The translations under genes and the position numbers were made by a program. Below, piece by piece: positions 427-64,000 of a DNA stretch of 64,000 nt. The first letter of the stretch is position 1, and each line of letters opens with the position of its first letter. The notes beneath the pieces are model-generated. The model had not been told where the DNA came from. It did no database searches and saw only the letters and a program-made list of their open reading frames with translations. Source of the DNA: Acidimicrobiia bacterium (GTDB taxonomy: Bacteria > Actinomycetota > Acidimicrobiia > Spongiisociales > UBA5794); NCBI GenBank assembly GCA_041608535.1, contig JBFISM010000001.1, positions 30,139-94,138 of the forward strand, given 5' to 3'.

Positions 427-1479
427 TCACCCTGGAGGAAGCCACGCTCGAGTCATCGTGAGCCCGATCCGTTCCCCGATCTCGAACTGCGGCGCTCCCG
501 TGACGCGAGCCGTGAACACCCCGACCGGGGTCGTGACCTCATAGTCTGTGTGCGGACCGCGAAACCAACGAGCACCCACCTCTCCCTTGATGACGCCGCT
601 TGGGGCATCGGTGTCACCGACGACAATCCACTCCGGCCGGATCAGCAGCTCGCCGTGCGACCCGGTTGGCGCCGCACCGTGCACCGCAACCCGCAGCGAC
701 CCGAACCTTGCAACGGTCCTCGTTGCCTCCGTCTCCAGGTCCGCCTCGATCACCGACACCGCTCCGGTCAACGTCGCCGTCCATCGATCGACCGGCCGTT
801 CGTAGATGTCTACGGGGGAGCCGACCTGGACGACTCGACCCTGCCGCAGCACCACCACTCGATCGGCGGCGGCGAGCGCCTCGACCGCATCGTGCGTGGC
901 ATAGACGACGCCTGCCGACCCAGCGGAGGTGCGCGTGGCGATCTCTTCCTGGACGGCGGTGCGCAACGCCGCATCGAGGTGAGCAGTCGGTTCGTCGAGG
1001 AGGAAGAGCTTGGCGGAGCGGGCCAGCGCCCGGGCGAGCCCGACGCGCTGCTGCTGGCCCCCCGACAGCTCTGCGGGCTTGCGTCGTGCCAGCTCTGCGA
1101 TCCCAACGCTGTCGAGCAGGCGGTGCGCCTCCTCGTGGGCCTGGGCCCGCCCCATCCCGCTGCGCAGCAGCGGGTAAGCAACGGTCTCCTCGGCTGTCAG
1201 ATGAGGCCACAGCGCGTAGTTCTGGAACACGAAGCCGATGGCCCGCTCCTCCGGCGGAGCCGCTGTCCTGGTGCTTGCGACCTCCACACCAGCAACGGAG
1301 ATCTCTCCCGCATCGAGATCGGCGAATCCGGCAATCGCATACAGCAGGGTGCTCTTCCCTGAGCCGGATGGTCCGAGCACAGCCACCGTCTCCCCGGGCG
1401 CCACCGAGACGTCCACGCTGTCGAGCGCGACCACGTCGCCGTAGCGCACCGTCAATCCTCGGCACTCGAGCACCGCCAT
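427..1479 (-). CDS. ABC transporter ATP-binding protein (Fe3+/spermidine-putrescine importer type, with C-terminal TOBE-like domain)
   Basis: Walker A GPSGSGKST, signature LSGGQQQRVGLARA, Walker B LFLLDEP; ORF-track N-terminal 124 aa is Arg-rich artefact; ATG at 1479..1477 overlaps TGA of upstream permease (ATGA coupling). Confidence 0.85.
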   Translation of the reverse strand: MAVLECRGLTVRYGDVVALDSVDVSVAPGETVAVLGPSGSGKSTLLYAIAGFADLDAGEISVAGVEVASTRTAAPPEERAIGFVFQNYALWPHLTAEETVAYPLLRSGMGRAQAHEEAHRLLDSVGIAELARRKPAELSGGQQQRVGLARALARSAKLFLLDEPTAHLDAALRTAVQEEIATRTSAGSAGVVYATHDAVEALAAADRVVVLRQGRVVQVGSPVDIYERPVDRWTATLTGAVSVIEADLETEATRTVARFGSLRVAVHGAAPTGSHGELLIRPEWIVVGDTDAPSGVIKGEVGARWFRGPHTDYEVTTPVGVFTARVTGAPQFEIGERIGLTMTRAWLPPG

Positions 1480-3089
1480 CACCCGGTTCCCAGCAGTCGG
1501 CGTGGCAGCTGTCCCAGCACCAGCAGCGGCAGGGCGACGACGAGCAGTGGCACCGTGAGCAACACGGCAAGCGCCGACGAAACCGGAACATCGCCGAGCT
1601 GTTGCAGGTTCAGCACCGCCACAGCCAGCGTATCCGTACCCGGTCCGTAGAGGAGGCTCGACATCGTGAGCTCGTGGAACGCAATCACGAAGACGAGCAG
1701 CCACCCACCGACGAGCGCCGGCCGCAGCAAGGGGAGAACGATCGTGCGCATGGTGGCCACCCGCCCGGCACCGCTGCTTCTCGCCGCACGCACGAGGTCG
1801 GGAGCGAGGTTGCTCGCGGACCCTGCGACGGTGCGGTGCCCGACGGCCCACAGCTTGGCGAGGTAGGCGAGCAGGATGAGCAGCAGCGTATCCCGCAGCG
1901 TTGGGGCATACGACAGCAACATGGCGACAGCAAGCGTCGAGCCGGGCACGGCGAAGGTGAGCAGGACCAACACAGCGGCGACGCCTCGCAATCTACGTTT
2001 GCCGATCGCCGCCACCGCACCCCCGAGCGCAACCGCCGCCGTGGCCGCCACTGCAGCCAGCAGCCCGCTGCGCGCAAGAGCGGCGAGCAACCGACCGTCG
2101 AGCGCCTCGCGGAAATGCTGCAGCGTCCAGTTGGCCGGTGTCGGGGGCACACCGACACCCCGAGTGATCGAGACCAGGATCAAGACGACGAGCGGGAGAA
2201 GTACCACTGCTACGGCCACTCCCCAGGCGACGATGGCAATCCAGGATCGACTGACAGTGCTGTGCCGGAACGGCAAGAGCTGTCCCGCCGTCGCCTCGAC
2301 GCGGCGCCGGCCGAGGAGCCCCTCTGCTCCCGCGGCAAAGACCAGCGCGACCATGACGAGACCCGTTGCCAGCAGCACTGCCCGGCTGAAGGCCTCCGGT
2401 TGAGCGGAGAGAGCCAGGTCTCCGTAGATCTGGGTGGTGGCGACGTCGAACGACGCCGGCGTTCCCAACACCGCCGGAACCCCAAACGAGTTGATCGCCA
2501 GCACGAAGACGAGCGCCGCCGCACCCAAGAGCGCCGGGGCGAGGAGCGGGACCGTGATCGTGCGGACCATGGTGAGCGGGGAGGCTCCCGAACTACGCGC
2601 GGCCAGCTCCAGATCGTGTCGCGCTCGCGTGTTGAGCGCGGTCGCACACACGAGATAGGCGAGCGGCATGGCGTTGACCGAGATGACCATCACGACGCCG
2701 ATCGGTCCCAATACGGCATCGAAACCGAGCCCAACCAAGTCGTCGATGAGGCCGCTCGGACCGTAGGCTCGCAGCCAGCTCATCGCTACCACGAACGGGG
2801 GAATCAGGACCGGCAACAGCACCGCCAGCCGGAGCCAACGGCGCCCCGCCACCACGACCCGCTCGGTGAGCACGGCCGCCCCCACACCCAGCAACGTCGC
2901 CAGCATCGCCGTGACCAGACCCACCCCGATCGTGTTGCGCACCACCTCCCGGGAGATCACCGCGGCATCGAGCGGGAACTGCTCGGCGGCCACCGCAGCG
3001 AGCTCGGTGAGCGGGACCACCACGAGTGCGCCGAGCGCTCCGAACACGGCAGCCACCAGCGTCCACTCACCTACTCGCCGCCGGATCAT
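1479..3089 (-). CDS. ABC transporter permease, fused duplicated (two TMD repeats; FbpB/ThiP-like)
   Basis: 536 aa hydrophobic protein with two similar permease halves; true start taken at MIRRRVGEWTLV (ORF-track upstream 161 aa is non-protein-like). Confidence 0.8.
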   Translation of the reverse strand: MIRRRVGEWTLVAAVFGALGALVVVPLTELAAVAAEQFPLDAAVISREVVRNTIGVGLVTAMLATLLGVGAAVLTERVVVAGRRWLRLAVLLPVLIPPFVVAMSWLRAYGPSGLIDDLVGLGFDAVLGPIGVVMVISVNAMPLAYLVCATALNTRARHDLELAARSSGASPLTMVRTITVPLLAPALLGAAALVFVLAINSFGVPAVLGTPASFDVATTQIYGDLALSAQPEAFSRAVLLATGLVMVALVFAAGAEGLLGRRRVEATAGQLLPFRHSTVSRSWIAIVAWGVAVAVVLLPLVVLILVSITRGVGVPPTPANWTLQHFREALDGRLLAALARSGLLAAVAATAAVALGGAVAAIGKRRLRGVAAVLVLLTFAVPGSTLAVAMLLSYAPTLRDTLLLILLAYLAKLWAVGHRTVAGSASNLAPDLVRAARSSGAGRVATMRTIVLPLLRPALVGGWLLVFVIAFHELTMSSLLYGPGTDTLAVAVLNLQQLGDVPVSSALAVLLTVPLLVVALPLLVLGQLPRRLLGTG

Positions 3090-9410: not shown

Positions 9411-10652
9411 ATGGTATCCCACGTGCTGGCACCGGATCGGGTGTTCGACGCAGCCACCGGCACCATGCTCACCGATCATGCAATCGTCATCGATGACGGG
9501 CTCGTGCGTGCCGTAGCACCGGTGGCGGAGGTCGCCGACCGTATCACCCAACCACTCCCACACGTGACGCTGCTGCCGGGTCTCATCGATTCCCACACCC
9601 ATCTGGCAGCACCACTCGATGACGGACACGGCTTTGCGTCCTTGGTGCAGCGCAGCGGCGCCCAAGATGCGCTCATCGGCGTGAAACACGCCGCCGAGAC
9701 CGTCCGCGCGGGCTTCACCACGGTCAGAGACATCGGGACCTGGCGCGCCTTCACCGATGTCGCGCTGCGCGATGCGATCGATGCCGGCTGGGTGGCCGGG
9801 CCGAGAATGCAGTGCGCCGGTGCCTACCTCACGGCGCCGGGTGGCGCCGGCGACATCACCGGTCTCGCCGTCGACGTCGATGCCGTGGTCCCCCGCGAGC
9901 TCCGCTTCGGCGTAGCGAGCGGTGCCGACCAGGTTCGCTCCACCGTCCGCCAGATACTCCGCTACGGCGCCGACTTCATCAAGGTGCTCGCCACCGGCGC
10001 GGTGCTCACCTCGGGTACCCGCCCCGGTGCGCCGGAGTTCACCGCCGCCGAGCTGTCGGCTGCGGTGGAGACGGCCACGGACGCCGGCACATACGTCGCC
10101 GCCCACGCTCACGGCACCGACGGCATCAAGCGGGCGGTGCGTGCCGGGGTCCGCTCCATCGAGCACGGCTCGATGCTCGACGACGAAGCCATCGAGCTCA
10201 TGGTCGATACCGGAACCTATCTCGTGGCCGACCTGTACGACGGGGACTACATACTCGAGGTCGGCCCTGAGCGCGGGTACAGCGACGAGGTGCTCCGCAA
10301 GACGGCAGAGACCACCGACGTGCAGCGCAGCGGCTTCACCAAAGCCGTGCACGCCGGCGTGAAGGTCGCCTTTGGCAGCGACGCCGGCGTGTTTCCCCAC
10401 GGATCACAGGGGCGCCAGTTCGCCTACTACGTCGATCATGGTCTCACCCCGGCCCAGGCGATCCAATCCGCAACGGCATGGGCGGCCGAGCTGCTCGGCT
10501 GGGACGACCGGGTTGGCCGTCTCTCGCCGGGCATGCTCGCCGACGTGATCGGCGTGGTGGGGAATCCTCTGGACGACATTCGTCTGCTGGAGACCGTCAC
10601 CATGGTCATGTGTCGTGGTGAGTGGATCGTCCCGCCAGCGACATCGCTGTGA
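9411..10652 (+). CDS. amidohydrolase family protein (metal-dependent hydrolase)
   Basis: N-terminal HxH metal motif LIDSHTHL, later HAHG and conserved Asp region typical of amidohydrolase superfamily. Confidence 0.8.
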   Translation: MVSHVLAPDRVFDAATGTMLTDHAIVIDDGLVRAVAPVAEVADRITQPLPHVTLLPGLIDSHTHLAAPLDDGHGFASLVQRSGAQDALIGVKHAAETVRAGFTTVRDIGTWRAFTDVALRDAIDAGWVAGPRMQCAGAYLTAPGGAGDITGLAVDVDAVVPRELRFGVASGADQVRSTVRQILRYGADFIKVLATGAVLTSGTRPGAPEFTAAELSAAVETATDAGTYVAAHAHGTDGIKRAVRAGVRSIEHGSMLDDEAIELMVDTGTYLVADLYDGDYILEVGPERGYSDEVLRKTAETTDVQRSGFTKAVHAGVKVAFGSDAGVFPHGSQGRQFAYYVDHGLTPAQAIQSATAWAAELLGWDDRVGRLSPGMLADVIGVVGNPLDDIRLLETVTMVMCRGEWIVPPATSL

Positions 10653-10680
10653 ACCGGGCGCCGGCGATCGCGATGCTCCT

Positions 10681-11475
10681 TCAGACCTCGGTCGCCTCCA
10701 GCTGCGCCCGCGCAAAGGCCGTCCGCATGACGGCCTCCGGATAGGGACCGGCGTTCGCATCGAACGTTCCTGCCCGCAATCCCTCACGACACAGCGCAGC
10801 AACGGCGGTCAACTCCTCGACCTGCGTAGCCACCTCGGCGCGGGTCATCGTGTCTCCGTGACCGGGCACCACCCCCCGGGAACCCATGGCCGCCAGCGCA
10901 GTGGCGGTCTCCCGCCACGCCAGCGGGAACCCGTCACCAAACACCGGTGGAGCACCGTTTTCCAGCAGATCGCCGGCAAACAGCACATCGGCATCGGACA
11001 CGGTGACCACCACGTCGCTGTCGGTGTGTCCCCGACCCAGCCACACCAGCGAGACCACCCTACCCCCGATGTCGATGTCGGCCCGCGGGTCGGCGACGTG
11101 CTGCGGGGGGACGATCACCACCTCCTCGACCACTGCCCGCTCCTCCTCCCCCAACCAGGCGATGGCATCGCGCTTCGCCCGTTCCCCCTCGTGCTCGAGA
11201 TACTCCCGGCACCGCACGTGGCCCCAGATGGCAGACTCCGCGAACTCGGCGTTGCCAAACACGTGATCCCAGTGATAGTGCGTGTTCACGACCCAGCGCA
11301 CCGGCAGCGACGTCACCTGCGCGATCTCGGTGAGGAGCTCGCGGGCCTGTCTCTGCGACTGGCGGGTGTCGACGACGAGTGCACCGTCTTCGCCGAGGAC
11401 CAGCCCCACATTGAGATCGAGCGAAGTGAAGCGACGGCGATAGACGGAGTCGGCGATCTCGTCCCAGACGGTCAT
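10681..11475 (-). CDS. MBL-fold metallo-hydrolase
   Basis: HxHxDH motif NTHYHWDHVFG and downstream His/Asp ligands; start at MTVWDEIADSV (ORF-track upstream is artefact). Confidence 0.8.
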   Translation of the reverse strand: MTVWDEIADSVYRRRFTSLDLNVGLVLGEDGALVVDTRQSQRQARELLTEIAQVTSLPVRWVVNTHYHWDHVFGNAEFAESAIWGHVRCREYLEHEGERAKRDAIAWLGEEERAVVEEVVIVPPQHVADPRADIDIGGRVVSLVWLGRGHTDSDVVVTVSDADVLFAGDLLENGAPPVFGDGFPLAWRETATALAAMGSRGVVPGHGDTMTRAEVATQVEELTAVAALCREGLRAGTFDANAGPYPEAVMRTAFARAQLEATEV

Positions 11476-49491: not shown

Positions 49492-49534
49492 CCGCCCGCG
49501 TCTTAGCTTCATGATGAAAGGACGGATACCAGCC

Positions 49535-49681
49535 ATGTCAGTTCCCGACACCCACGGCGAACGCGGCGCCACCATGGTGGAGTACGCCATCATGCTTGCG
49601 CTCATCGCAACCGTATCCATGGTCGTGATCACCACGATCGGCCAGGATGTGCTCGGCGCCTTCGCCTCCGCGAAGTGGTGA
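49535..49681 (+). CDS. flp: Flp family type IVb pilin (48 aa)
   Basis: canonical Flp prepilin motif ERG/ATMVEYAIMLALIATVSMVVITTIG; too short to appear alone in ORF track (it is the C-terminus of artefactual ORF 48515..49681). Confidence 0.75.
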   Translation: MSVPDTHGERGATMVEYAIMLALIATVSMVVITTIGQDVLGAFASAKW

Positions 49682-50007: not shown

Positions 50008-53000
50008 TTGCTGCCGTCTCCGATGAGCCATCCAATCGCAACGCCGTTGACCATCGTGGCGAGACCCCGCCTCGAGGAGCTGCACCGCCTTCTCGGCGAG
50101 CGACGGCTCTGCCTGATCTCTGCCGGTGCCGGCTACGGCAAGACGACCCTGCTCGGGGTATGGCGCGAGCAGGCGCCGACGGGCTTTGTGACGTGCACAG
50201 AGGGGCACGGCAACCTCGGTGTGTTCGCCACCACGGTGACGAACGCGCTGCGCGCCTGGATTCCCGGTCTGCAACCGCGAACGACAGGGGTCGAGTCGAT
50301 GAGCGGCCCGGCGGTGGCGTCCGAGCTGATCGCCGCAGCAGCGCCGCTGATGCAACGTCCGATCCGTCTCTTCTTCGACGATGTCGATGAACTTCGCACG
50401 GGTGAGTCGGCTCGCTTTCTCCAATCTCTGGTGCTGCAGGCTCCGCAGAGCCTCGGGATCGTGCTGGCAGGCCGTAGCGAACCTCCTGTACGAATCGCCA
50501 GACTCCGCGGTCGCGGCCAGCTGCTCGAGCTGACGGCTGCCGACCTTCGCTTCACCTTCGACGAGACGACTCGGTTCGTTGCCGCCACGGCTCCGGAGGT
50601 GGCCGGCTACGTCGACGAGATCCATGCAACGACCGGGGGCTGGCCCGCGGCGGTCCGGCTCACCGTCGAGGCGCTCCGCGGCAGCCCAGTCGACGATCGA
50701 CTCCGCGTGCTGGAACGGGCGCGCCGACCCGGGGGTACGTTGTTCGCCTATCTGGCCGATGAGGTCATCGACAGCGAGCCTCCTCCGGCCAGAGAGATGC
50801 TGCGCACGCTGGCGGCGATCGGGGCGGCTCCCGATGCGCTCGTGCTCGACGTGTGTGGAGGAGAAGAGACTCTGCTGGCGGGACTGCAGCGGCGCGGATT
50901 GTGTGTGGCCAGCGGACCAGACATCAGCGTGCCGCCACTCGTGGCGGACTTTCTCGCCTCAGACGCTCCCCTCGAGGCGACAGAGCGGTTGGGTGCGCTC
51001 GAACGTGCCGCCCACTGGTTCTGCGATCACGGAATGCACCGCCGGGCGCTGGAGCTCGCCACCCGACGGGGGGCAACCGAGCTGGCCGCTGCCATCTGTC
51101 TCGAGCACGGGGAGCAGATCGCCGACTCGGGAGGAGCCGCAGCTGTGCTGGCAGCGCTGCGGACGGTCGACGAGAAAGACCTCACACCGGCGCTCTTGCG
51201 ACTGAAAGCCAACGTGCTGCACACCACGGGCGATTGGGATGCGGCCCTGGCGATCTATGAGGGATTGGACGGCGGCGCCGCCAGCATCCCGGCCGACCTG
51301 GCCTGGCGCATGGGTCTGATCCACCTCCTGCGAGGAGATCCCCACACTGCGACTGAGGTGTACCGGCGTGCGGACATCACGGCCCAGGACGCCGATACCG
51401 CCATCCTGCTCGGCTGGTGGGCGTCGGCCGCCTGGATCACTGCGGAGACCGCTCACTGCCGTTCGTTGGCAAATGAATCATTGGCAACAGCTCAGCGGGT
51501 TGGCGATGACCGCGCCCTGGCGGTGGCGCACACGGTGCTGGCGATGGTTGCAGCTGTGGACGGAGACCGCCACGGCAACGAGGCGCACTACATCGCTGCT
51601 CTGGATCACGCCAAACGGGCCGACGACGTCTTGCAGCAGGTGCGAATCCATGTCAATCGCGCCAGCCACCATCTGGAGGAGGGGCACTATCTCGAATCGA
51701 TCGCGGAGAGCGACCAGGCGCTGACGCTCGCCGAGCTCGGCGACATCGTGCCATTCAAGGCAATGGCGCTACTCAATCGCGGTCAAGCGCTGTCGCGGCT
51801 GGGGCGGTTGGAGGCGGCAGACGCCGATTTCGCCGCAGCCCACAGCGAGTGGGAACGAACCCGTTCCCGGCATGTCGCCTATGCATTGAATGCATTTGGC
51901 GAGAGTCGAACCGCACGGGGAGTCCGGTCGCTGGCGCGATCCGCTCACGAGCAGGCGCTTGCCATCGCGGAGGCGAACTCAGACACACAGGCGCTCATCC
52001 CGGCGCTCGTCGGTCTGGCCAAGGTCACCATCGACGACGATCCGGCGACGGCGCGGCTGCTGGCGAAACGAGCCGCCGACCACGGCCCGAGCCTCGGAAC
52101 GGCCGCGGCGCTGCTTGCCCTGGGGTGGGCCGAGCTGGAGCTGGGCAACACCGAGGCGGCGATCGACAACGCTCGCCGTGCCGGTGACATCGCCAGAGCA
52201 CGGCGGGACCGCGCCGCTACCGCAGAAGCGCTGGAATTGGAAGCGTTTGCTGCGCCCGATGAGGCCAAGCCCCTGCTCGACGAGGCGCTGGAGTTGTGGG
52301 GCAGCCTCGACGACCCCCTCGGGCACGCCAAGTCGCGTCTCGCCCGGTGTCGGCTGCTCCACGCTGACATCGAGGAGCTCGATGAGCTGGCGGCTCTGTT
52401 CGGCAGGCTCGGTGCCCGACATCTCGCCGCCGAGACGAGGGCGATGGTCGAGCGTCTCGGTGCGGAACGACGCAACGCCGTCGTCATCGAAACCCTCGGG
52501 GGCTTCCGCGTTGTCACCGGCGGCGAGCCGGTTCCCGCTTCGGCGTGGCAGTCGAGGAAGGCAAGGGATTTGTGCAAGCTGCTGGTGACCCGGCGGGGCA
52601 AACCGGTCCATCGGGAGGTGCTGCTCGAAGAGCTGTGGCCCGGCGAGGACGGGCAGAAAACGGCGAACCGACTCTCTGTCGCCCTGTCGACGCTCCGCAA
52701 CGTCTTCGACCCCGAGAGGACTCACGATCCCGACCACTACATCGCAGCAGACAAGACATCCGTCGCGCTCGTGCTCGAAGCACTCGAGATCGACGTGGAG
52801 CGATTCATCTCCGCCGCTCGTGACATCCTGGAACACCCGGACGCATCCGAGGCGCGGCTGGAACGCATCGAAGCCGCCTATCGCGGAGATTTCCTCGAGG
52901 AGGATCCGTACGCCGACTGGGCGGTATCGCTGCGGGAAGAGGCGCGAAGCCTGTATCTGCGGCTGGCCCGCAGGCTTGCCGAGCTCACCAGCGAGCGTGG

Positions 53001-53229
53001 CGACCACGATGCCGCAGCCCGCTATCACCTCCGGGTTTTGGAACGTGACCCGTACGACGAGCCTGCCCATCTCGGATTGGTGAGCGCCATGGCCGCCACG
53101 GGCCGGCATGGGGAGGCGCGCCGTCTCTACCGAGCGTATTGCGAGCGGATGGCCGATCTCGACGTCGACCCGCATCCATTCCCCGCCGAGGGACACGCCG
53201 CCACCCAGCCGGCATTCAGGAAAACCTAA
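50008..53229 (+). CDS. large STAND NTPase-TPR regulator with C-terminal SARP (OmpR-type wHTH + BTAD) domain
   Basis: Walker A LISAGAGYGKTTLL near N-terminus; central Ala/Leu-rich TPR-like repeats; C-terminus (about 52480..53229) has wHTH FRVVTGGEPV...LCKLLVTRRGKPVHREVLLEELWP and BTAD EAAYRGDFLEEDPYADWAVSLREEARSLYLRLARRLAEL...ARRLYRAYCERMADLDVDP; 1073 aa. Confidence 0.8.
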   Translation: MLPSPMSHPIATPLTIVARPRLEELHRLLGERRLCLISAGAGYGKTTLLGVWREQAPTGFVTCTEGHGNLGVFATTVTNALRAWIPGLQPRTTGVESMSGPAVASELIAAAAPLMQRPIRLFFDDVDELRTGESARFLQSLVLQAPQSLGIVLAGRSEPPVRIARLRGRGQLLELTAADLRFTFDETTRFVAATAPEVAGYVDEIHATTGGWPAAVRLTVEALRGSPVDDRLRVLERARRPGGTLFAYLADEVIDSEPPPAREMLRTLAAIGAAPDALVLDVCGGEETLLAGLQRRGLCVASGPDISVPPLVADFLASDAPLEATERLGALERAAHWFCDHGMHRRALELATRRGATELAAAICLEHGEQIADSGGAAAVLAALRTVDEKDLTPALLRLKANVLHTTGDWDAALAIYEGLDGGAASIPADLAWRMGLIHLLRGDPHTATEVYRRADITAQDADTAILLGWWASAAWITAETAHCRSLANESLATAQRVGDDRALAVAHTVLAMVAAVDGDRHGNEAHYIAALDHAKRADDVLQQVRIHVNRASHHLEEGHYLESIAESDQALTLAELGDIVPFKAMALLNRGQALSRLGRLEAADADFAAAHSEWERTRSRHVAYALNAFGESRTARGVRSLARSAHEQALAIAEANSDTQALIPALVGLAKVTIDDDPATARLLAKRAADHGPSLGTAAALLALGWAELELGNTEAAIDNARRAGDIARARRDRAATAEALELEAFAAPDEAKPLLDEALELWGSLDDPLGHAKSRLARCRLLHADIEELDELAALFGRLGARHLAAETRAMVERLGAERRNAVVIETLGGFRVVTGGEPVPASAWQSRKARDLCKLLVTRRGKPVHREVLLEELWPGEDGQKTANRLSVALSTLRNVFDPERTHDPDHYIAADKTSVALVLEALEIDVERFISAARDILEHPDASEARLERIEAAYRGDFLEEDPYADWAVSLREEARSLYLRLARRLAELTSERGDHDAAARYHLRVLERDPYDEPAHLGLVSAMAATGRHGEARRLYRAYCERMADLDVDPHPFPAEGHAATQPAFRKT

Positions 53230-56325: not shown

Positions 56326-57531
56326 ATGGACGTGTACATCGCCGATGCCGTGCGCATCCCGATGGGTCGCCGTGGTGGTCAGCTTGCGCATGTGCGTCCC
56401 GACGATCTCGCCGCCCACGTCATCAGGGCGCTGCTGGAGCGCAATCCGCACCTTGCACCCGACGGCGTCGAGGATGTGGTGTGGGGCGCCGCCAACCAGG
56501 CGGGAGAGGACAACCGCAACGTAGGTCGAATGGCGGCGCTGCTCGCCGGAATGCCCGTCGAGACCGGCGGCGTCACCATGAACCGACTGTGCGGATCGGG
56601 ACTCCAAGCGGTGGTGTCGGCCAGCCACGCGCTGTATGCGGGTTGGGGCGATGTGATGATCGCCGGGGGGAGCGAATCGATGAGCCGGGCACCGTACGTG
56701 CAGCTCAAGGCGAACCAAGCCTTCGCCACCGGCACACCGGAGGTGGCCGATTCCGTGCTCGGCTGGCGCTTTGTCAACCCGGAGATGGAGCGCACCTATC
56801 CACCGATCTCGCTGGGGATGACGGCCGAGGTGGTGGCGGAGCGGTACGGGATCACCCGCAAGCAGCAGGACGCGTTCGCGCTTGCCTCACACGAACGGGC
56901 CGTGGCGGCGCAGAAAGAGGATCGGTTCACCGCCGAGCTCGCAGCCATCGAGGCGCCTGCCGATGCACGCGGGCGCACCGTGGTGACGGTCGAGCGCGAC
57001 GAGGGCCCTCGCGCCGACACCAGCCTCGACGCCCTGACCGCACTGCCTCCCGTTTTCAAGCGAGACGGGACCGTGACGGCCGGCAACTCCTCGCCGATGA
57101 ACGACGGCGCCGCGGCACTCTTGCTGACCACCGGCCCGGGTCTCGACCGGCACGGCCTCGAGCCACTGGCACGTGTCGTTGCTGCGGCCGTAGCCGGAGT
57201 CCATCCCGACGTCATGGGCATCGGACCGGTGCCCGCCTCGGAGAAGGCGCTCGAACGAGCCGGTCTCACCGCTGCGGATCTCGACCTGGTGGAGCTCAAC
57301 GAGGCATTCGCCGCCCAGACCGTGGCGTCGATGCAGCAACTCGGGCTCGACCATGGGATCGTGAACGTCGATGGTGGAGCGATCTCTCTGGGTCATCCTC
57401 TCGGCGCCTCCGGCGCCAGGATCCTCACGACGCTCACCCACGGGCTGCATCGTCACGGAGCCCGCTACGGACTGGCCACGATGTGCATCGGGGTGGGTCA
57501 GGGCGTCTCGGTCGTCATCGAGCGGGTTTGA
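56326..57531 (+). CDS. acetyl-CoA C-acyltransferase (thiolase)
   Basis: thiolase active-site Cys NRLCGSGLQA, C-terminal GxGxG CIGVGQG; start MDVYIADAVRIPMGRRGG. Confidence 0.85.
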   Translation: MDVYIADAVRIPMGRRGGQLAHVRPDDLAAHVIRALLERNPHLAPDGVEDVVWGAANQAGEDNRNVGRMAALLAGMPVETGGVTMNRLCGSGLQAVVSASHALYAGWGDVMIAGGSESMSRAPYVQLKANQAFATGTPEVADSVLGWRFVNPEMERTYPPISLGMTAEVVAERYGITRKQQDAFALASHERAVAAQKEDRFTAELAAIEAPADARGRTVVTVERDEGPRADTSLDALTALPPVFKRDGTVTAGNSSPMNDGAAALLLTTGPGLDRHGLEPLARVVAAAVAGVHPDVMGIGPVPASEKALERAGLTAADLDLVELNEAFAAQTVASMQQLGLDHGIVNVDGGAISLGHPLGASGARILTTLTHGLHRHGARYGLATMCIGVGQGVSVVIERV

Positions 57532-57549
57532 CACGACGGCTTTGCGAAG

Positions 57550-58701
57550 TCAGCCGACGAGCTGCACCGTCTCGGAGTATCCGATGTCGTCGACCGCACC
57601 CGAGCCGTTGAGCTTCACCACCATCAAATCCGCTTCCACGGGCGAGGGGAGAAACCGCTGGGCGACCATACCGTCCCCGGCAAGCGTGAGCTGCACCTCC
57701 GCAACGAGGTTGCCGTCTCGGTACAGCCACACAAACGCATCCTCCTCCACATCGACGAGGGTCACATCTGTGACGGTCACCAGACCCGTGTCTCCGAAAT
57801 CCTCGAAGTCGAGCACCAGGGTGCAGTCCGTCGTGATGTCATCGGCGTCCTCGGCATAGCTGGGTGCATCGTTGGCGCTCGCACCCGTGGGGCACGGTCC
57901 CCCGAAATCGTCCGGATCGGATGCGTCACCGTCCTCAGAGATGATGAGCACGCCTCCCTGGCCGGGGAGGAACAGATCGTTGTCTCCACCCGAGCAGTTG
58001 GACGCCGGCCCTCCGCCACAGGTGGCATCGAACACCATCGGACCGAAGGCCGTGTTCGATCCAATGGCCACCTCGCCGCTGATGTGGTCGCCGCTGATGC
58101 CATATCCGGCAGAGACCTCACTCGGCTGATCACCAGCGGGGATTCCCTCGAAATCGATCACGGCGCGACGTTTCAGCGAGATGGCGGTCGCCGACACGTC
58201 ACTGGTTTCGAAGCCGAGGACACGAGCGAAGAGGTGTTCCACCGGGTTGCCATATGCCGCGGAGCGGCGGGTGGTCACTTGCACGGCATTGAGGGGAAGA
58301 CCACTGGCCACGAATGTTCTCGTCGACGTGTCCCAGTTCCCCACCACGACGTCGGGCGCTTTGGTCAGGGGACCAGCTCCGTCATCGTTGCGATCGGCGT
58401 AGTCGATGGCGATCACCTCGGCCACCGTTGCAATTGGCAGCCCGCGCGCTGCGGCCGTCGAAGCAGCGTCTGCCGCCGTCTGCAGCTCGGTCCGCACCAC
58501 ATACAGGTGCCCGACATCAACCGCCAGTGCCGCAAAGCCGAAGATCACGAAGAGGAGCAGGCCCACGAAGATCGCCGTTGTCCCCGATTCCATTTCGCCT
58601 GATGCGACACGCCCCCGATGGAAGGAGCCGGTGGGCACCTTTGTCGAAAGAGGTGTGGCGTCGTCCGACGACCGCACCGGCAGCAGCTGCGTCTCCCCCA
58701 T
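57550..58701 (-). CDS. TadE/TadG-like pilus assembly protein with large C-terminal extension (paralog 1)
   Basis: Tad N-terminal domain TTAIFVGLLLFVIFGFAALAVDVGHLYVVRTELQTAADAAS; start ATG 58701 with GGGGGACGGGG SD; C-terminal domain with DATCGGGPASNCSGGD motif. Confidence 0.7.
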   Translation of the reverse strand: MGETQLLPVRSSDDATPLSTKVPTGSFHRGRVASGEMESGTTAIFVGLLLFVIFGFAALAVDVGHLYVVRTELQTAADAASTAAARGLPIATVAEVIAIDYADRNDDGAGPLTKAPDVVVGNWDTSTRTFVASGLPLNAVQVTTRRSAAYGNPVEHLFARVLGFETSDVSATAISLKRRAVIDFEGIPAGDQPSEVSAGYGISGDHISGEVAIGSNTAFGPMVFDATCGGGPASNCSGGDNDLFLPGQGGVLIISEDGDASDPDDFGGPCPTGASANDAPSYAEDADDITTDCTLVLDFEDFGDTGLVTVTDVTLVDVEEDAFVWLYRDGNLVAEVQLTLAGDGMVAQRFLPSPVEADLMVVKLNGSGAVDDIGYSETVQLVG

Positions 58702-58996
58702 GGTCCCCGTCCCCCAATGGCAGCAAATGAATGGTTGCGCCTCGCAGGGACCACGTAGCTGTGAGGTGCTGTATAGGTCTGAAGACGCATCATAGAGGCC
58801 AATGCGATGTACGACCGACGGGAGAGCGTTCACGCTGGGTTTAGCGGTGTGTCCGTCGTACGAGCGAGGTCAGAAAGACGCTTGGGACGGAAGAGATTCA
58901 CTTCCAACAAGGCACTGGGTCCGGCGTGTACCGGACCCAGTGGCCAGGGAGGTGACATGCGGCCGTGCGGTGACGCCCTCGTCTACCGCTACTGCC

Positions 58997-60097
58997 TCAC
59001 CCGACGAGGGAGACCGTCTCGGAATATCCAATGTCGTCGATGGCGCCCGATCCGTTCAGCTTGACCACCATGATGTCGCCGTCGACCGGCGTGGGCAGCA
59101 ACCGCTTGGCCGCCATGCCGTCACCCGCCAGGGTCAGTTGCACTTCGGCCACGAGGTTGCCGTTCCGGTAGATCCAGACAAAGGCGTCTTCCTCGACGTC
59201 GACAAGCGTGACATCCGTGATCGTGACAACTCCCTCGCCGAAGTTCCGGAAGTCGAGCACCAGCGTGCACAGCGTGGTCACGTCGCTGGGATTGGCGACC
59301 CATGCCGGAGCATCGTTGGCGGCAGCCCCTGTCGGGCAGGGCGTCGGTCCCGCATAGTCGTCCGGGTCGCTGGAATCGCCATCCTCAGAGATGATCAGCA
59401 CCCCGCCCTGGGTCGGGACGAAGAGGTCGCTGTCACCGCCTGTGCAGTTGGAGGCCGGCCCGCCGCCGCAGGTTGCGTCGAACACCATGGGACCGAATCC
59501 CGTGTTGGACGAGATGTCGACGGTACCGGGAATCGGGTCGCCGGAGATCCCGTATCCGCTCGATACCGAATAGGGCTGATCACCTGCCGGAATACCTTCG
59601 AAGTCGATGACGGCGTTCTGCCTCAGAGCAATCGATGCAGCTCGCACATCGGTGGTCGGGTTGCCCAGGATCCCGGCGAAGAGGTTGTCCACCGGATTGC
59701 CGTATGCGACCGAACGGTTCGTGATCACCTGCACCGCGTTGAAGGGGAGCCCGTTCTCGGTGTATGTGCGGGTGGACGAATCCCAGTAGCCCACCGAGAT
59801 GTCAGCGGCGTCCGTGATGTTGCCGTTTCCGAACGAGTTCTCGTTGTTGGCGTAATCGAGTGCGATCGCCTCGGCGGCGATCTCGAGCGGGAGCCCCCGA
59901 GCCCCTGCGGTCGCGGCAGCGTCGGCCGCCGTCTGCAGCTCGGCTCGCACCATGTAGATCTGGCCGACGTCGACCGCCAAGGCGGCAAACCCAAAGATCA
60001 CGGTGAGCAGGAGACCGACGAAGATAGCCGACACTCCACTCTCCGAGCGGAGACGCTCGTCCCCCGTTGCCGGCTCCACCACGTCCAGCTCGTTCAT
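58997..60097 (-). CDS. TadE/TadG-like pilus assembly protein with large C-terminal extension (paralog 2)
   Basis: SAIFVGLLLTVIFGFAALAVDVGQIYMVRAELQTAADAAA; 70-85 percent aa identity to paralog 1 along whole length; SD GGGGG 7 nt before ATG 60097. Confidence 0.7.
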   Translation of the reverse strand: MNELDVVEPATGDERLRSESGVSAIFVGLLLTVIFGFAALAVDVGQIYMVRAELQTAADAAATAGARGLPLEIAAEAIALDYANNENSFGNGNITDAADISVGYWDSSTRTYTENGLPFNAVQVITNRSVAYGNPVDNLFAGILGNPTTDVRAASIALRQNAVIDFEGIPAGDQPYSVSSGYGISGDPIPGTVDISSNTGFGPMVFDATCGGGPASNCTGGDSDLFVPTQGGVLIISEDGDSSDPDDYAGPTPCPTGAAANDAPAWVANPSDVTTLCTLVLDFRNFGEGVVTITDVTLVDVEEDAFVWIYRNGNLVAEVQLTLAGDGMAAKRLLPTPVDGDIMVVKLNGSGAIDDIGYSETVSLVG

Positions 60098-60494
60098 GTT
60101 GCACCCCCTGGCCGGGAGGTCCCATCCCCGAGGTCCGGTTCGTCACCGGAGCGGTCTTCGGATTCCCCCGCTTGGCTCGTATTCCCCTTTGCACACCATC
60201 GGACAGCCGAGATGAGCCGCCCGAGTCTCGATGGGACAGAACAGAAGGTCGTTGGCCCGCAACCGCGGCCGCGTGGGCGCAGCGATCAGCGCGACGTGAT
60301 TCCCCCAAATTCCATTCCCCAGCTCGTCGATTCGCCGAACCGGCGATTGCGGCCGTACGCCGCGTGCTCGACTCGCCTTGTGTGTTCGTAGGTTCCGTCA
60401 GTTGTGAGTTGTCGTGGCCCCGCCGGCCTCCTGCACGAAACGGCGTCGGTGCGGTTCCACGTCTATACGACACATGGCCGTGCCGCTTCTTACA

Positions 60495-61478
60495 TCATTC
60501 GGGGAACATGACCTCGTCGATGAGGCTTTCCTCGACGTGACCGCCCTTGGGCTCGAACCTGTAGTGCGCAAAGTCCTTCTCGAACTCGAGATCGAGACCC
60601 TCGGGTCCGTGGCGGTACTTCTCGAAGCTCAGCACGGTCCGCCGTTTGTGCTCCTCTGCCTTCAAGACGTCGAAGGAGGAGTGCAGCTTGGACACGGCGG
60701 TGAACTTGCTGTTGAGCAGGAGCAAGAGATCGGCTTCGTACCCGACGCCGGATGCGCCGTTGAGGTGGTGCATCCGCAGCCGGCGGATGTTGAGCCCGGA
60801 CGCATCCGAAGCGACGATGGCGAGCACGGCGACATCGGCGCTGAGTGCGATCGACTTGAGCCCCTGAGCGATCTTGGCGACGCGGCTCAGGTCCCCCGTG
60901 GCCGGGTGCGGCACTTTCTGGAGGAAGTCCACGATGAGCAGGCTGCCGGGGCCGGCGTGCTGCGCCGTCTCGGTCAGCGCCTGCAGGTCGGTACCGGTAC
61001 GGCTGGCGTTGATGAACCACAGCCGCTCTCCGTAGTCGCTGATCCTGCTGTACGCGGCACGGAGCAACAGGTTCCGGCTCAACTCGTCCTCGAGCGATGC
61101 CTCACCCAGAGCGATGCTGCGGATCGCTGCCCGCGTGGGACCGGAGGCGCCGGGCGCTCCCTCCACGAGGTCGCCCACCTCGAGCAACAGCAACCGGCTG
61201 AGCAGCGTCAGGTGATCGTGGTCGTAACACGCATAGACGACGTTCGTGCCCTGCTCTGCGGCGTTACGGGCCCATTGCATCGACATCACGGTCTTTCCCT
61301 GGCCGGGAGCGCCACCGAGGATGGTCAAGTCCCTGGGTCGCAGTCCACCTTCGAGCACCGTGTCGAGCGGCTCGAATCCGGTCGGAACGGTATGCACCCC
61401 GCGCGCCTCCTCGTCGACCGACGCCAGGACGGCACTCGCCGACCGGAACTGTGGAGCGTTGGGGTGGACTTCGAGCAT
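60495..61478 (-). CDS. RecA-superfamily (KaiC/DnaB-C/RadA-like) P-loop ATPase encoded 19 nt downstream of tadC
   Basis: Walker A GGAPGQGKTVMS, Walker B LLIVDFLQKV, RecA-like fold features; ATG 61478 with AAAGG SD immediately after tadC stop (61498); alternative GTG 61514 would overlap tadC. Confidence 0.7.
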   Translation of the reverse strand: MLEVHPNAPQFRSASAVLASVDEEARGVHTVPTGFEPLDTVLEGGLRPRDLTILGGAPGQGKTVMSMQWARNAAEQGTNVVYACYDHDHLTLLSRLLLLEVGDLVEGAPGASGPTRAAIRSIALGEASLEDELSRNLLLRAAYSRISDYGERLWFINASRTGTDLQALTETAQHAGPGSLLIVDFLQKVPHPATGDLSRVAKIAQGLKSIALSADVAVLAIVASDASGLNIRRLRMHHLNGASGVGYEADLLLLLNSKFTAVSKLHSSFDVLKAEEHKRRTVLSFEKYRHGPEGLDLEFEKDFAHYRFEPKGGHVEESLIDEVMFPE

Positions 61479-61497
61479 GGGGGTGCGACCTTTCGGC

Positions 61498-62430
61498 TCA
61501 GGGGACGAGGGCACCGCCGAGATCGCGGAAGATCCGGATCACGGCAGGACCGAGCAGGATGATGAACATGGCGGGGAAGATGCACATGGCGAGCGGGAAG
61601 ATGAGCTTGACCGGCAGCTTCATCGCCTGCTCTTCGGCACGCTGGAAGCGCTTGTCCCTGAGCTCGTCGGATTGCACCCGCAGCACGCCGGCCACCGGAA
61701 TGCCGTACTGCTCGGATTGCACGACAGCGAGGATGAAGCTGTCGAGATCCGACACCGCGGTACGGCTGGACAGATTGCGGAGAGCCTGCGGGCGAGGGAT
61801 ACCGAGCTGGATCTCGCGCAGCGTGCGCTGCAGCTCGTCGGCAAAAGGTCCCTCACCGGAGCGGGCCACTCTCGCTAGTGCAGCCTCGAAACCCAGCCCG
61901 GCGTCCACCGACATCCGGATCTGGTCGAGGGTGTCTGGAAGTTCGAGCTGGATGCTGTGCTGACGTGCCTTACCCTTTTGTGCGATCAACAGATCGGGCA
62001 GAAAGAAACCCAACGCTGTTACACCGAGCACAATCAGGGGCTGCAGTCGTGGTACCGACCCAAAGGGTCCCAACAGCCCGAAGGCGAGGCCAGCAGCACC
62101 CAGCCCGAATTTGGTGACCAGCATCCGCTCCACCGATGTGGTGTCGGCGTTGCCGGCCAAAACGAGATTCTTCCGCAGGGAGTCCGTCCACCCCGCCGGA
62201 GTGAGGCTCCGCAGGCGCACGCCCATGGCGCGCAGCATCGGGACACCGACACGCTTGCCGATGCCCTGCTGGAGCACCAGCGACCGGGCGTCGGTGGTTT
62301 CCGGCTTGCCCAGGATGCGCTCCCGGCTGGCGGCGCTTGCCGCGCTCACGCGGGTCGAAGCGACGGACCAGTACAAGACCGGGAGCGAGACGGAGACTGC
62401 GACCGCCGCAAGGATGATCTGGATTGGCAT
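61498..62430 (-). CDS. tadC: type II secretion system F family protein (TadC-like)
   Basis: 310 aa, N-terminal TM, cytoplasmic T2SSF domain, C-terminal TM pair; 9 nt after upstream tadB-like gene. Confidence 0.75.
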   Translation of the reverse strand: MPIQIILAAVAVSVSLPVLYWSVASTRVSAASAASRERILGKPETTDARSLVLQQGIGKRVGVPMLRAMGVRLRSLTPAGWTDSLRKNLVLAGNADTTSVERMLVTKFGLGAAGLAFGLLGPFGSVPRLQPLIVLGVTALGFFLPDLLIAQKGKARQHSIQLELPDTLDQIRMSVDAGLGFEAALARVARSGEGPFADELQRTLREIQLGIPRPQALRNLSSRTAVSDLDSFILAVVQSEQYGIPVAGVLRVQSDELRDKRFQRAEEQAMKLPVKLIFPLAMCIFPAMFIILLGPAVIRIFRDLGGALVP

Positions 62431-62439
62431 GGCGTCCTC

Positions 62440-64000
62440 CTAGTACTCCAACTTGGTGATTTTTCTCATCCACAGGACTCCGACCACCATGCCGAGCAAA
62501 CCGGCGGCGACCATGATCTGGCCCATGGTCGACTCGAACAGCTCGAGGAGGTAGTCCGGGTTGATCATCATGAGCGCTCCCACCAAGAACACGGGAAGCG
62601 ATCCCAGAATCACCCCCGAGAAGCGGCCCTCGGCGCTGAGCGACTTGACCCGACGCCGGATACGGTTCCGGTCACGGACGGTGTCGGTGACCGAGTCGAG
62701 GATCTCGCCGAGATCGCCACCGACCTCACGATGAATCTCGATCGCCTCGACCACCCACCGGAAGTCCTCCGATTGGAGGCGATGTGCCATGGCCTTCAGC
62801 GCCTCGTCCGAGTCCCGTCCGAGATGCGTCTCCAGCTTCACCCGGCGGAACTCCTCCCCTGCGGGATCGGCGATCTCGTTGGCGACAGTGTCGACGGCTT
62901 GCATCAGACCAAAACCGGAGCGGAGGCTGCCGGCCATGAGCTGAAGCGCATCTGGGAGCTGGGCGGCGAAGGACGAACGGCGTTTCGACGCTTTCTGGCT
63001 GAGGAAGGCGTAGATACCCAGGACCGTGAAGACGGCAAGTCCGAGCCCGGCGAGCCCGCTGATGGTGGCGAAGCCCACCGCCAAGGCGCCGAGCATGGCG
63101 GCGCCGGTGAGCACCACGAACTCTGCGGGACGCCACGACAGACCGGCCGCTTCAAGCTTGGTGTTGATGACACCGCGCCGCTCGCCCTTCTCGAGGCTGC
63201 GATCGGCGAACAACGTGGCTTGCTCGGCGAGCGACGACAGGGTCTTGCCCTTCGTCTCGCCGAACTTCTTCGACACCGCCTTGGCGACGAGCTGCACGTT
63301 CCTCGGCTGGCCGATACCGGAGAGGAACACGATCGTCGCCAGCGAGACGAACATCATGCCGAGTCCCGTGTAGAGCAGCCCCGGTCGGTCGAACAACCCG
63401 AGCTGCACTTCGAAGCCCTCACGCAACGCCGGAGCCACCGTGGCCACGGGGGCGACGACCGTGGTGGGGGTCACCGAAACCACGCTTGTCGGGGGTACCG
63501 TCTCGGTCACCGGAGGGGGTTCCGGGTATTCCACGATCCCGACGAGCGACGTCGACTGACCGTTGGCGCTGGCGACCACCTCGAGCTCCGTTGCGTCGAA
63601 CGACGCCGACTCGAACGTCAGCGAGAATTGGTTGACGATGGCCGTGGCCAGCTCATTGAGAACGCCCGTGAGCGCTTCCGGGTCGTCGGCGGACACCACC
63701 CGGCTCTCCCCGGCATCGGGGTGAGCTGCTTCGGCGAGCGCTCGCATCGCCACCGGATCGTTCTCCGTTCCTTTCAGCTCGATGGCGTGATAGGCCACAT
63801 CCGTCACCACGAGCCGCTCCTCCAGCTCGATGAGCGTGAGTGCGCTGGCGGTATCGGCGCCGTCGGAGAGCAACACCACGGTATTGCGGGTGTCCTCGAG
63901 CCCGGCGAACTGATCGAGCCCGAGCGCCAGACCGTCGTACAACGCCGTGTTGCCTCCGGTAGAGATGCCCCGGATGGCCTCGGCCAGCTCGGCCGCATCG
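62440..64000 (-). CDS. tadB: VWA domain - TadB-like (T2SSF) fusion protein, 5' end beyond window
   Basis: C-terminal 310 aa T2SSF membrane domain; upstream in same frame, open to window edge: ...GGNTALYDGLALGLDQFAGLEDTRNTVVLLSDGADT (VWA C-terminal half) then Thr/Val/Pro linker; ORF-track start 63942 is a TTG in a frame with no stop up to base 64000. Confidence 0.65.
   Translation of the reverse strand, partial: DAAELAEAIRGISTGGNTALYDGLALGLDQFAGLEDTRNTVVLLSDGADTASALTLIELEERLVVTDVAYHAIELKGTENDPVAMRALAEAAHPDAGESRVVSADDPEALTGVLNELATAIVNQFSLTFESASFDATELEVVASANGQSTSLVGIVEYPEPPPVTETVPPTSVVSVTPTTVVAPVATVAPALREGFEVQLGLFDRPGLLYTGLGMMFVSLATIVFLSGIGQPRNVQLVAKAVSKKFGETKGKTLSSLAEQATLFADRSLEKGERRGVINTKLEAAGLSWRPAEFVVLTGAAMLGALAVGFATISGLAGLGLAVFTVLGIYAFLSQKASKRRSSFAAQLPDALQLMAGSLRSGFGLMQAVDTVANEIADPAGEEFRRVKLETHLGRDSDEALKAMAHRLQSEDFRWVVEAIEIHREVGGDLGEILDSVTDTVRDRNRIRRRVKSLSAEGRFSGVILGSLPVFLVGALMMINPDYLLELFESTMGQIMVAAGLLGMVVGVLWMRKITKLEY

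Follow-up and report, generated by a model that had tools for sequence, protein, structure and literature searches.

In the current model, Tad/Flp pili are powered by one bifunctional ATPase (TadA/CpaF), which is joined by the ParA-like protein TadZ. To our knowledge, a RecA-type accessory ATPase is absent from the bacterial Tad model, whereas archaeal machines use the KaiC-like ATPase ArlH. Similarly, we know of no cytoplasmic motor for Tad-dependent transformation in Actinobacteria. In archaea, ArlH regulates ArlI (PMC12488501), and KaiC-family ATPases and von Willebrand factor A (vWA) proteins recur in type IV pilus loci (PMC4858521). Here we analyzed a 64,000-nucleotide stretch of an Acidimicrobiia contig (JBFISM010000001.1; hereafter the window), in which a gene for a DnaB-derived protein (hereafter the ATPase) lies directly downstream of tadC. 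Our data suggest that it is an undescribed accessory ATPase of the Tad pilus machine. A full-text literature search returned no paper joining tad loci with a DnaB-like or DnaB_C protein.

The gene (60495..61478, minus strand) is an open reading frame with an ATG start and encodes 327 residues, comprising a linker helix and a RecA-type core. Pfam assigned DnaB_C (PF03796) to aa 31-306 with 63.4 bits against a cutoff of 27, covering profile positions 2-253 of 255. There was no Pfam match to the DnaB N-terminal domain (PF00772), and the protein begins at the linker region. The DnaB equivalog TIGR00665 reached 56.4 bits (cutoff 385) and the remaining DnaB equivalog models no more than 46 bits. As these scores fall far below every DnaB equivalog cutoff, the ATPase has the DnaB_C domain but is no orthologue of DnaB. 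The phage family phrog_19 ("DnaB-like replicative helicase") matched over the full length with 93 bits. When a profile of the family (92 members) was compared with PDB chains, DnaB scored up to 92 bits in two stretches spanning both halves, one of which placed query positions 9-101 on residues 157-256 of a 454-aa DnaB, the linker region. An AlphaFold2 monomer model built on the family alignment was confident, with a predicted local distance difference test (pLDDT) of 89.5 and a predicted template-modelling score (pTM) of 0.88. The top 50 Foldseek matches of this model in the PDB were all DnaB-family proteins (E ~1e-16, template-modelling (TM) score ~0.70, ~310 aligned columns, ~20% identity), drawn from the DnaB helicases of V. 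cholerae, Geobacillus, E. coli, Aquifex and Thermus, from SPP1 G40P and from T4 gp41. The ATPase is the linker helix and RecA-type C-terminal domain of DnaB, N-terminally truncated.

Matches to KaiC and its relatives were restricted to one region. Pfam KaiC (PF06745) scored 40 bits (cutoff 26.6) over aa 31-89, which correspond to profile positions 1-60 of 231, and all KaiC/FlaH matches were confined to aa 24-94. Indeed, the KaiC, AAA_25, RadA, RadB and FlaH models matched only the N-terminal P-loop region, with FlaH NF004723 at 19.7 bits (cutoff 194) and KaiC NF006799 at 29.6 bits (cutoff 408). In the profile comparison with PDB chains, the top KaiC match (66 bits) covered positions 23-94 only and ranked behind 16 DnaB entries, and FlaH chains were absent from the best 60 matches. 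The T2SSE domain (PF00437), present in the real TadA genes of related loci, did not match the ATPase, and neither did any Tad, T2SSE, T2SSF or CpaE model of Pfam and NCBIfam. Judged by its sequence, the ATPase is an addition to the known set of Tad components.

An earlier note on this DNA had proposed a RecA-superfamily ATPase distinct from the VirB11/TadA type, which the missing PF00437 match bears out. Its placement in a "KaiC/RadA/DnaB-C branch" was right as to DnaB, which matches over the full length, but not as to KaiC, RadA and FlaH, which match the P-loop third only. The analogy that it drew with FlaH must be narrowed accordingly. Homology holds only at the superfamily level, while an accessory ATPase acting with TadC/TadA homologues stays plausible by analogy. 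As only the P-loop third matches FlaH/KaiC models, the likeness to FlaH would be one of function, reached by independent recruitment.

We scanned one genome per GTDB species for relatives of the ATPase (373 in total) and annotated the best 80 of the 373 using the Tad proteins of the window and of a related locus, L001. An orthologue with 50% identity, on a 4.16-Mb Acidimicrobiia contig, was the last gene of a complete tad locus (flp x4, tadE, tadG, rcpC, tadZ, tadA, vWA-tadB, tadC, ATPase). Among the 80 relatives, the ATPase adjoined tad genes in 60. Most of these (51 of 80) had tadC directly upstream on the same strand. Three, all from Caldilineae and checked with Pfam, had tadA directly upstream and tadE/G after the ATPase (flp, tadE, rcpC, tadZ, tadB, tadC, TPR/PD40 protein, tadA, ATPase, tadE/G). 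Six, from Actinomycetota, stood in front of the flp...tadC operon and were transcribed divergently to flp, as was also seen on two more contigs with precomputed gene calls. These three arrangements agreed with independent gene calls and Pfam. A fourth, with the ATPase convergent with tadC, was found at four further loci in a search that started from metagenomic tadC relatives. The remaining 20 of the 80 were not adjacent to tad genes, although several of their contigs were too short to tell. Overall, adjacency holds in four gene orders and two phyla, down to ~39% identity.

Copy number followed the same pattern. Metagenome-assembled genomes (MAGs) with two or three tad loci carried one ATPase per locus (L004/L007/L035; L016/L020; L015/L029; L023/L067; L069/L073). 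The 5 kb downstream of tad-linked copies encoded 133 proteins in all. They represented 147 Pfam families, none of which was found in more than four proteins, and no competence, recombination, relaxase, integrase or rep family recurred in this census. All-against-all clustering yielded no conserved partner gene, only antisense shadow open reading frames, a LuxR-type regulator, an aldehyde dehydrogenase and a short-chain dehydrogenase/reductase (SDR). Given such variable downstream genes, the ATPase travels with the tad module as its sole conserved companion. The conservation of the neighbourhood, which the earlier note had wanted examined, is therefore strong, with 60 of 80 copies next to tad genes. 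That note had also named two outcomes that would speak against its reading, namely best matches in phages or plasmids amid mobile genes, or a lack of tadC linkage. We observed neither.

Within the window, the tadC-like platform gene (61498..62430, minus strand; T2SSF domain, 84 bits in Pfam) is 58% identical to the tadC of L001 and ends in a TGA stop at 61498-61500. The ATPase start lies 19 nt past this stop, with a Shine-Dalgarno sequence, as had been noted; the spacer (61479..61497, minus strand) contains the Shine-Dalgarno-like GAAAGG ~10 nt upstream of the ATG (61476-61478). An alternative in-frame GTG at 61514 would give a 339-aa protein overlapping tadC by 17 nt. This overlap had been foreseen as well, but the GTG is disfavoured, since homologues with 50-82% identity are 327-328 aa long and begin at the aligned Met. 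For the same reason, the ATG was taken as the start. The 327-aa reading frame itself, for which no strand had been stated, is real and lies on the minus strand. It is not a chance frame, having 95 homologues (E 1e-210 to 1e-23), a DnaB_C match and a confident AlphaFold2 model. The G+C content is ~65% and even across the whole window, which therefore holds no compositional island. A scan of 57400-61600 gave no promoter-like sites. The sole terminator-like site (60247-60264, minus strand) lies in the gap after the ATPase gene, and the count was no higher than shuffles predict. An Rfam scan of the window from 57 to 64 kb returned zero matches.

Motif conservation was counted in 92 homologues and in 59 tad-linked copies. 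The Walker A motif (P-loop) GGAPGQGKT (aa 55-63; 61290..61316, minus strand) and the Walker B motif LLIVDF (aa 180-185; 60924..60941, minus strand) that had been reported earlier are both read directly from the sequence. In the former, for which the general form is GxPGxGKT, G56, G61 and K62 were invariant in the 92 homologues and in 59 of 59 tad-linked copies. The latter is followed by LQK and has invariant D184, Q187 and K188 within the family consensus VDYLQKVP; VDFLQK of the window (VDYLQK in the family) aligns to IDYLQL of E. coli DnaB. The position of the DnaB H1a Glu is occupied by YEHD (YDHD in the window), residue 86 being Glu or Asp in the family and Asp in the window. The arginine finger KYRHG (60606..60620, minus strand) has the family consensus KNRxG with invariant K287, R289 and G291, compared with K(Q/H)R(N/S)GP in DnaB and AKHRSGP in the canonical DnaB of locus L069. 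The ATPase and DnaB also share a C-terminal "F..RF" strand. Altogether, the residues for ATP binding and hydrolysis (Walker A Lys, acidic H1a residue, Walker B Asp and arginine finger) are intact, and a trans-acting arginine finger in a DnaB-type fold implies an oligomeric active site.

The loop equivalent to the H3-H4 DNA-binding region of DnaB, GLNIRRLRMHHLNGA (aa 228-242; 60753..60797, minus strand), aligns to RADKRPVNSDLRESG of E. coli DnaB. Tad-linked copies are rich in Arg here, with R232 in 51, R233 in 59, R235 in 57, H238 in 51 and R240 in 46 of the 59. Position 240, that of the DnaB H4 Arg, is Asn in the window. The H4-like family sequence HLRGxSGxxYEAD, which varies little or not at all, corresponds to DLRESGSIEQDAD of DnaB. 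The Gln of the DnaB H3 motif "SQLxR" has been replaced (VASDA/VAxD), and the following loop is remodelled to a conserved GLxxRRLRxHHLRG.

Our preferred reading, held tentatively and at slightly less than an even chance, is that the ATPase is a co-inherited accessory or regulatory motor subunit of a monoderm-type Tad/Flp machine, by analogy with ArlH/FlaH. From homology and the arginine finger, the linker helix would drive assembly of a ring, probably a hexamer, as in the C-terminal tier of DnaB. ATP would then be bound and hydrolysed at the subunit interfaces, as suggested by the invariant Walker A, acidic H1a, Walker B and KxRxG residues. Finally, the ring may sit on the cytoplasmic side of both the TadA hexamer and the TadB/TadC platform, modulating or assisting pilus assembly or dynamics. 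This last step is drawn from gene context, and the role would parallel that of the KaiC-like ArlH/FlaH and the KaiC-family ATPases of archaeal type IV filament machines. As the ATPase belongs to another branch of the RecA superfamily than ArlH/KaiC, its sequence points to a recruitment from DnaB independent of ArlH/FlaH. TadB of this locus carries a vWA domain, and thus both archaeal accessory themes occur in a bacterial locus.

Several observations weigh against an accessory role. Homology to ArlH/KaiC does not extend beyond the P-loop third, and the proposed link to TadA, TadB and TadC derives from gene context. About a quarter of the family is not next to tad genes. These copies mostly form their own clades in neighbour-joining trees, which are poorly resolved at deep nodes and were used for clade-level statements only, and they sit in housekeeping contexts (tilS-ftsH, PRK, dxr and thioredoxin-like genes). 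In addition, the ATPase was beside tadC in only 9 of 63 metagenomic tadC relatives (36-62% identity), in a census that needed at least 300 bp downstream and whose 4-kb flanks would miss flp-divergent copies. This proportion makes it an accessory that only some of the monoderm-type Tad systems possess. Lastly, the Arg-rich pore-loop region is as conserved as the catalytic motifs, which suits a polyanion translocase no less than a pure regulator.

The pore loop leads to the strongest competitor, rather unlikely in itself and less probable than an accessory subunit, in which the ring is still a DnaB-type motor for single-stranded DNA (ssDNA) and the Tad machine imports or exports DNA, with the ATPase as its own cytoplasmic motor in the place that ComFA takes in Firmicutes. 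The full C-terminal fold of DnaB is kept, including the linker helix. The loop at the DNA-binding position is Arg-rich and highly conserved, above all at R233, R235 and R232, and two relatives with the same motifs (P0148 and P0151) keep the DnaB N-terminal domain. The best NCBIfam match of TadA from L001 and L063 was "heli_sec_ATPase" (TIGR03819), below its cutoff (346-348 bits vs 373), and TadZ, TadE and TadG of those loci weakly matched sister models including "tadE_like_DECH". Moreover, natural transformation of the actinobacterium Micrococcus luteus (PMC4322843) and DNA uptake by Liberibacter (PMC8513845) both require Flp/Tad pili. The paper on M. luteus, however, describes tad clusters without mention of a helicase (PMC4322843). 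The "SQLxR" Gln of DnaB H3 is lost, the window has Asn at the H4 Arg position, and the 133 downstream neighbours include no recurring competence, recombination or relaxase family and no conserved partner gene. A more specific form of this idea, rated marginally lower again, is that an ssDNA motor docked to the Tad machine makes up a DNA-uptake or DNA-export apparatus with a dedicated superfamily 4 (SF4) translocase in a widespread group of uncultured Actinomycetota and Chloroflexota.

A role unconnected with pili, as a DnaB paralogue in DNA metabolism or housekeeping that is kept beside tad by inherited synteny or shared regulation, appears improbable. It would account for the variable housekeeping contexts of the unlinked clades, for the copy at L070, which belongs to the tad-linked clade yet has no tad genes within 9.5 kb, and for the majority of sampled tadC relatives having no ATPase next to tadC. 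It fits poorly with adjacency across four gene orders and two phyla at identities down to ~39%, with the Caldilineae gene lying inside the operon between tadA and tadE/G, and with the duplication of the ATPase along with tad loci while the other neighbours vary. Descent as a true FlaH/ArlH (KaiC-family) orthologue, inherited with Tad from an archaeal ancestor, is effectively refuted and very improbable. In its favour, an archaeal pilus is the presumed ancestor of the Tad system (PMC12488501), the Pfam KaiC match exceeds its cutoff, and several KaiC chains were matched. Against this, the KaiC/FlaH matches stop at aa 94, NF004723 and NF006799 stay far below their cutoffs, the best 60 PDB matches hold no FlaH, and the C-terminal half bears the DnaB-specific motifs DYLQ, H4-like EAD and KNRxGP. 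Least credible of all is that the ATPase serves an integrated phage, plasmid or integrative and conjugative element as its replicative helicase. DnaB_C-only helicases are known on plasmids and phrog_19 does match at 93 bits, but the idea is contradicted by tblastn searches of phages and plasmids, where true helicases reached only 23-29% identity, by the lack of any recurring integrase, rep or relaxase family among the neighbours, by the even G+C content and by the metabolic and regulatory neighbours in the window. The best "phage" match, MT839844.1 (L084, 6849 bp; 35% identity), was rejected as evidence of a mobile-element origin because it is mislabelled chromosomal DNA. This record ("UNVERIFIED: Bacteriophage sp.") holds a DnaB_C-only member whose neighbours are a fragment of an aldehyde dehydrogenase, dxr and an M50 protease resembling RseP, and looks like a high-GC actinobacterial chromosomal fragment rather than a phage. 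PADLOC gave only a 16-bit match and nothing meaningful.

The family is discrete. When 1.84 billion representatives, clustered at 50% identity, were searched exhaustively with a profile, at least 339 clusters scored E<=1e-30 compared with 43,995 at E<=1e-10, which sets the group well apart from ordinary DnaB. A second, word-indexed search gave over 2,500 sequences at a clustering level of 90% identity. Wherever a source was named, it was a MAG, either from Acidimicrobiia and other Actinomycetota or from Chloroflexota (Caldilineae, Limnocylindria and Chloroflexia), and no cultured host of a tad-linked copy was among them. Database labels of the members include "DnaB-like helicase C-terminal domain-containing protein", "AAA family ATPase" and, at JGI, "replicative DNA helicase". 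The last of these is almost certainly wrong for tad-linked copies. At locus L069, a canonical 469-aa DnaB (651-2057, plus strand; 45% identity to reference DnaB, all classical motifs) is encoded ~8 kb upstream of a tad locus with a tad-linked copy, which is therefore an extra paralogue there. An open reading frame of L060 (58-1617) gave a weak match similar to that of the L069 DnaB.

P0148 and P0151 (491-519 aa) are informative as to origin. They lie near the Chloroflexota clade, have the same motifs as the family, score more than 340 bits on its profile and retain the DnaB N-terminal domain. P0148 (L087 8001-9560) is found among prfA, prmC, sua5 and prs. These proteins may represent the ancestral full-length form, and their retained domain suggests, as the probable origin of the family, a full-length DnaB paralogue that lost its collar. 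Two other members differ in architecture. P0142 has an N-terminal extension with only a weak DUF4388 match. P0242 (524 aa) is an apparent TadC-ATPase fusion whose middle reads as frameshifted tadC, again with tadC and ATPase adjacent; we rejected it as a true fusion, since read-through of a frameshifted tadC, introduced during assembly or gene calling, is the most likely cause.

Other tad genes of the window surround the tadC-ATPase pair. Upstream of tadC, a vWA-TadB fusion gene (62440..64000, minus strand) has a C-terminal T2SSF domain (68 bits in Pfam); its frame is open to base 63999 and runs past the window end. Full-length orthologues with VWA and T2SSF domains are 652-654 aa long (L001 7077-9035, L168 3471-5432 and L169 1052-3016). 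Some tad-linked loci (e.g. L038, L045 and L046) have a short TadB without the vWA fusion, which is thus not strictly coupled to the ATPase. Downstream, 397 nt after the ATPase gene, lies a TadG-like minor pilin gene (58997..60097, minus strand; Tad and Tad_C in Pfam), in the same order as at L085 and L086. It is followed by a second, tandem TadG-like minor pilin gene (57550..58701, minus strand; Pfam), whose start was taken from the 383-aa gene call in L085/L086. The two are 72% identical (BLASTP). In both, Tad/Tad_C make up the N-terminal part. Their C-terminal parts of ~200 aa have conserved Cys/Gly/Asp-rich motifs and no Pfam match, and could serve as an adhesin or as a module of the tip. 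An orphan gene for a Flp pilin (49511-49681, plus strand), some 8 kb away from the tad genes, encodes 56 aa including GERGATMVEYAIMLALIA and may provide the major pilin of the window's Tad system. Directly downstream of it lies the gene for a 1073-aa AAA/TPR/BTAD regulator (SARP/AfsR-like; 50008-53229, plus strand). Further neighbours in the window include a thiolase and aminotransferases besides this SARP-like regulator.

Comparison of the loci revealed additional features of their surroundings. A LuxR/GerE-type response regulator, probably a regulator of the tad locus, was encoded at the edges of 14 tad loci and sometimes convergent with the ATPase gene (e.g. L014 1657-2352, L015 10962-11678, L017 3963-4652, L018 2800-3594 and L021 1321-2202). 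Loci with the flp-divergent arrangement were flanked by genes for GT87 glycosyltransferases and a PMT-family protein O-mannosyltransferase (L168 89-1390 and 12026-13294; L169 11008-12225 and 13658-15295; L040 11000-12304). In the same loci, an unannotated protein of ~350 aa follows the ATPase (L168 10980-12029, overlapping the last 50 nt; L064 11537-12595). These flanking genes could constitute a pilin glycosylation module. The L070 copy (9644-10897), inside the tad-linked clade, has no tad gene within 9.5 kb upstream. Its aldehyde dehydrogenase neighbour is the same as that of the tad-linked L045, L046, L051 and L065. This suggests that the tad genes were lost from the site or moved elsewhere. 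In a Chloroflexia/Limnocylindria clade (L071, L074, L075-L077, L080 and L081), the gene follows tilS-ftsH and precedes HAD, LigT and SLOG-cluster4 genes, and a TadE-like/PKD or ParA/TadZ-like gene lies 4-5 kb away on the opposite strand.

If the ATPase does act in pilus biogenesis, a new component would have to be placed in the Tad motor, derived from a DnaB ring and found in two monoderm phyla. Type IV filament machines would then have recruited RecA-superfamily rings convergently. If instead the ring still moves DNA, it could be the cytoplasmic motor that is so far missing from Tad-dependent DNA uptake in Actinobacteria.

The locus can be compared with four described systems. The actinobacterial "helicase/secretion neighbourhood" Tad-like loci are of the same Tad subtype, going by the TIGR03819 match of TadA from L001 and L063. 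We take models TIGR03815-03819, on the strength of their names, to be defined by an actinobacterial Tad-like neighbourhood with a DEAH-box helicase. This presumably includes the M. tuberculosis Rv3654c-Rv3660c region, where the neighbour would be a superfamily 2 (SF2) DEAH/DECH-box helicase. A literature search on Rv3659c and the helicase was unproductive. A helicase-family protein would be a recurrent neighbour of a Tad-like system in both cases. In contrast to the SF2 helicase presumed there, the protein described here is SF4, DnaB-derived and encoded directly in the operon.

Mobile DnaB-like helicases without the N-terminal domain (RSF1010 RepA, SPP1 G40P and plasmid proteins) likewise consist of a collar-less RecA-type core. 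RSF1010 RepA is an active hexameric helicase, and the ATPase domain of SPP1 G40P (3BH0) superimposes on the ATPase with a TM score of 0.69-0.79. Sequence identity to these proteins is only 19-29%, however, and the ATPase gene is a chromosomal one linked to tad, in surroundings that are neither those of a replication gene nor those of a mobile element. DnaB itself (SF4; PDB 4ESV, 2R6A, 6BBM and 9DLS) has the same fold over ~310 residues (TM 0.70, E 1e-16) and shares the Walker A motif, the acidic H1a residue, the Walker B "DYLQ", the H4-like "LRGxSG..EAD", the "KNRxGP" finger and the "F..RF" strand. Unlike DnaB, the ATPase lacks the N-terminal primase-binding collar and the H3 "SQLxR" Gln, has the pore loop RRLRxHHLR and is encoded in tad operons, at L069 alongside a canonical DnaB. 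ArlH/FlaH, in turn, is the counterpart in setting. Both are single-domain ATPases of the RecA superfamily, encoded next to TadA (ArlI) or TadC (ArlJ) homologues of a type IV filament machine. They differ in that the ATPase comes from a different branch of the superfamily and belongs to the Tad loci of monoderm bacteria.

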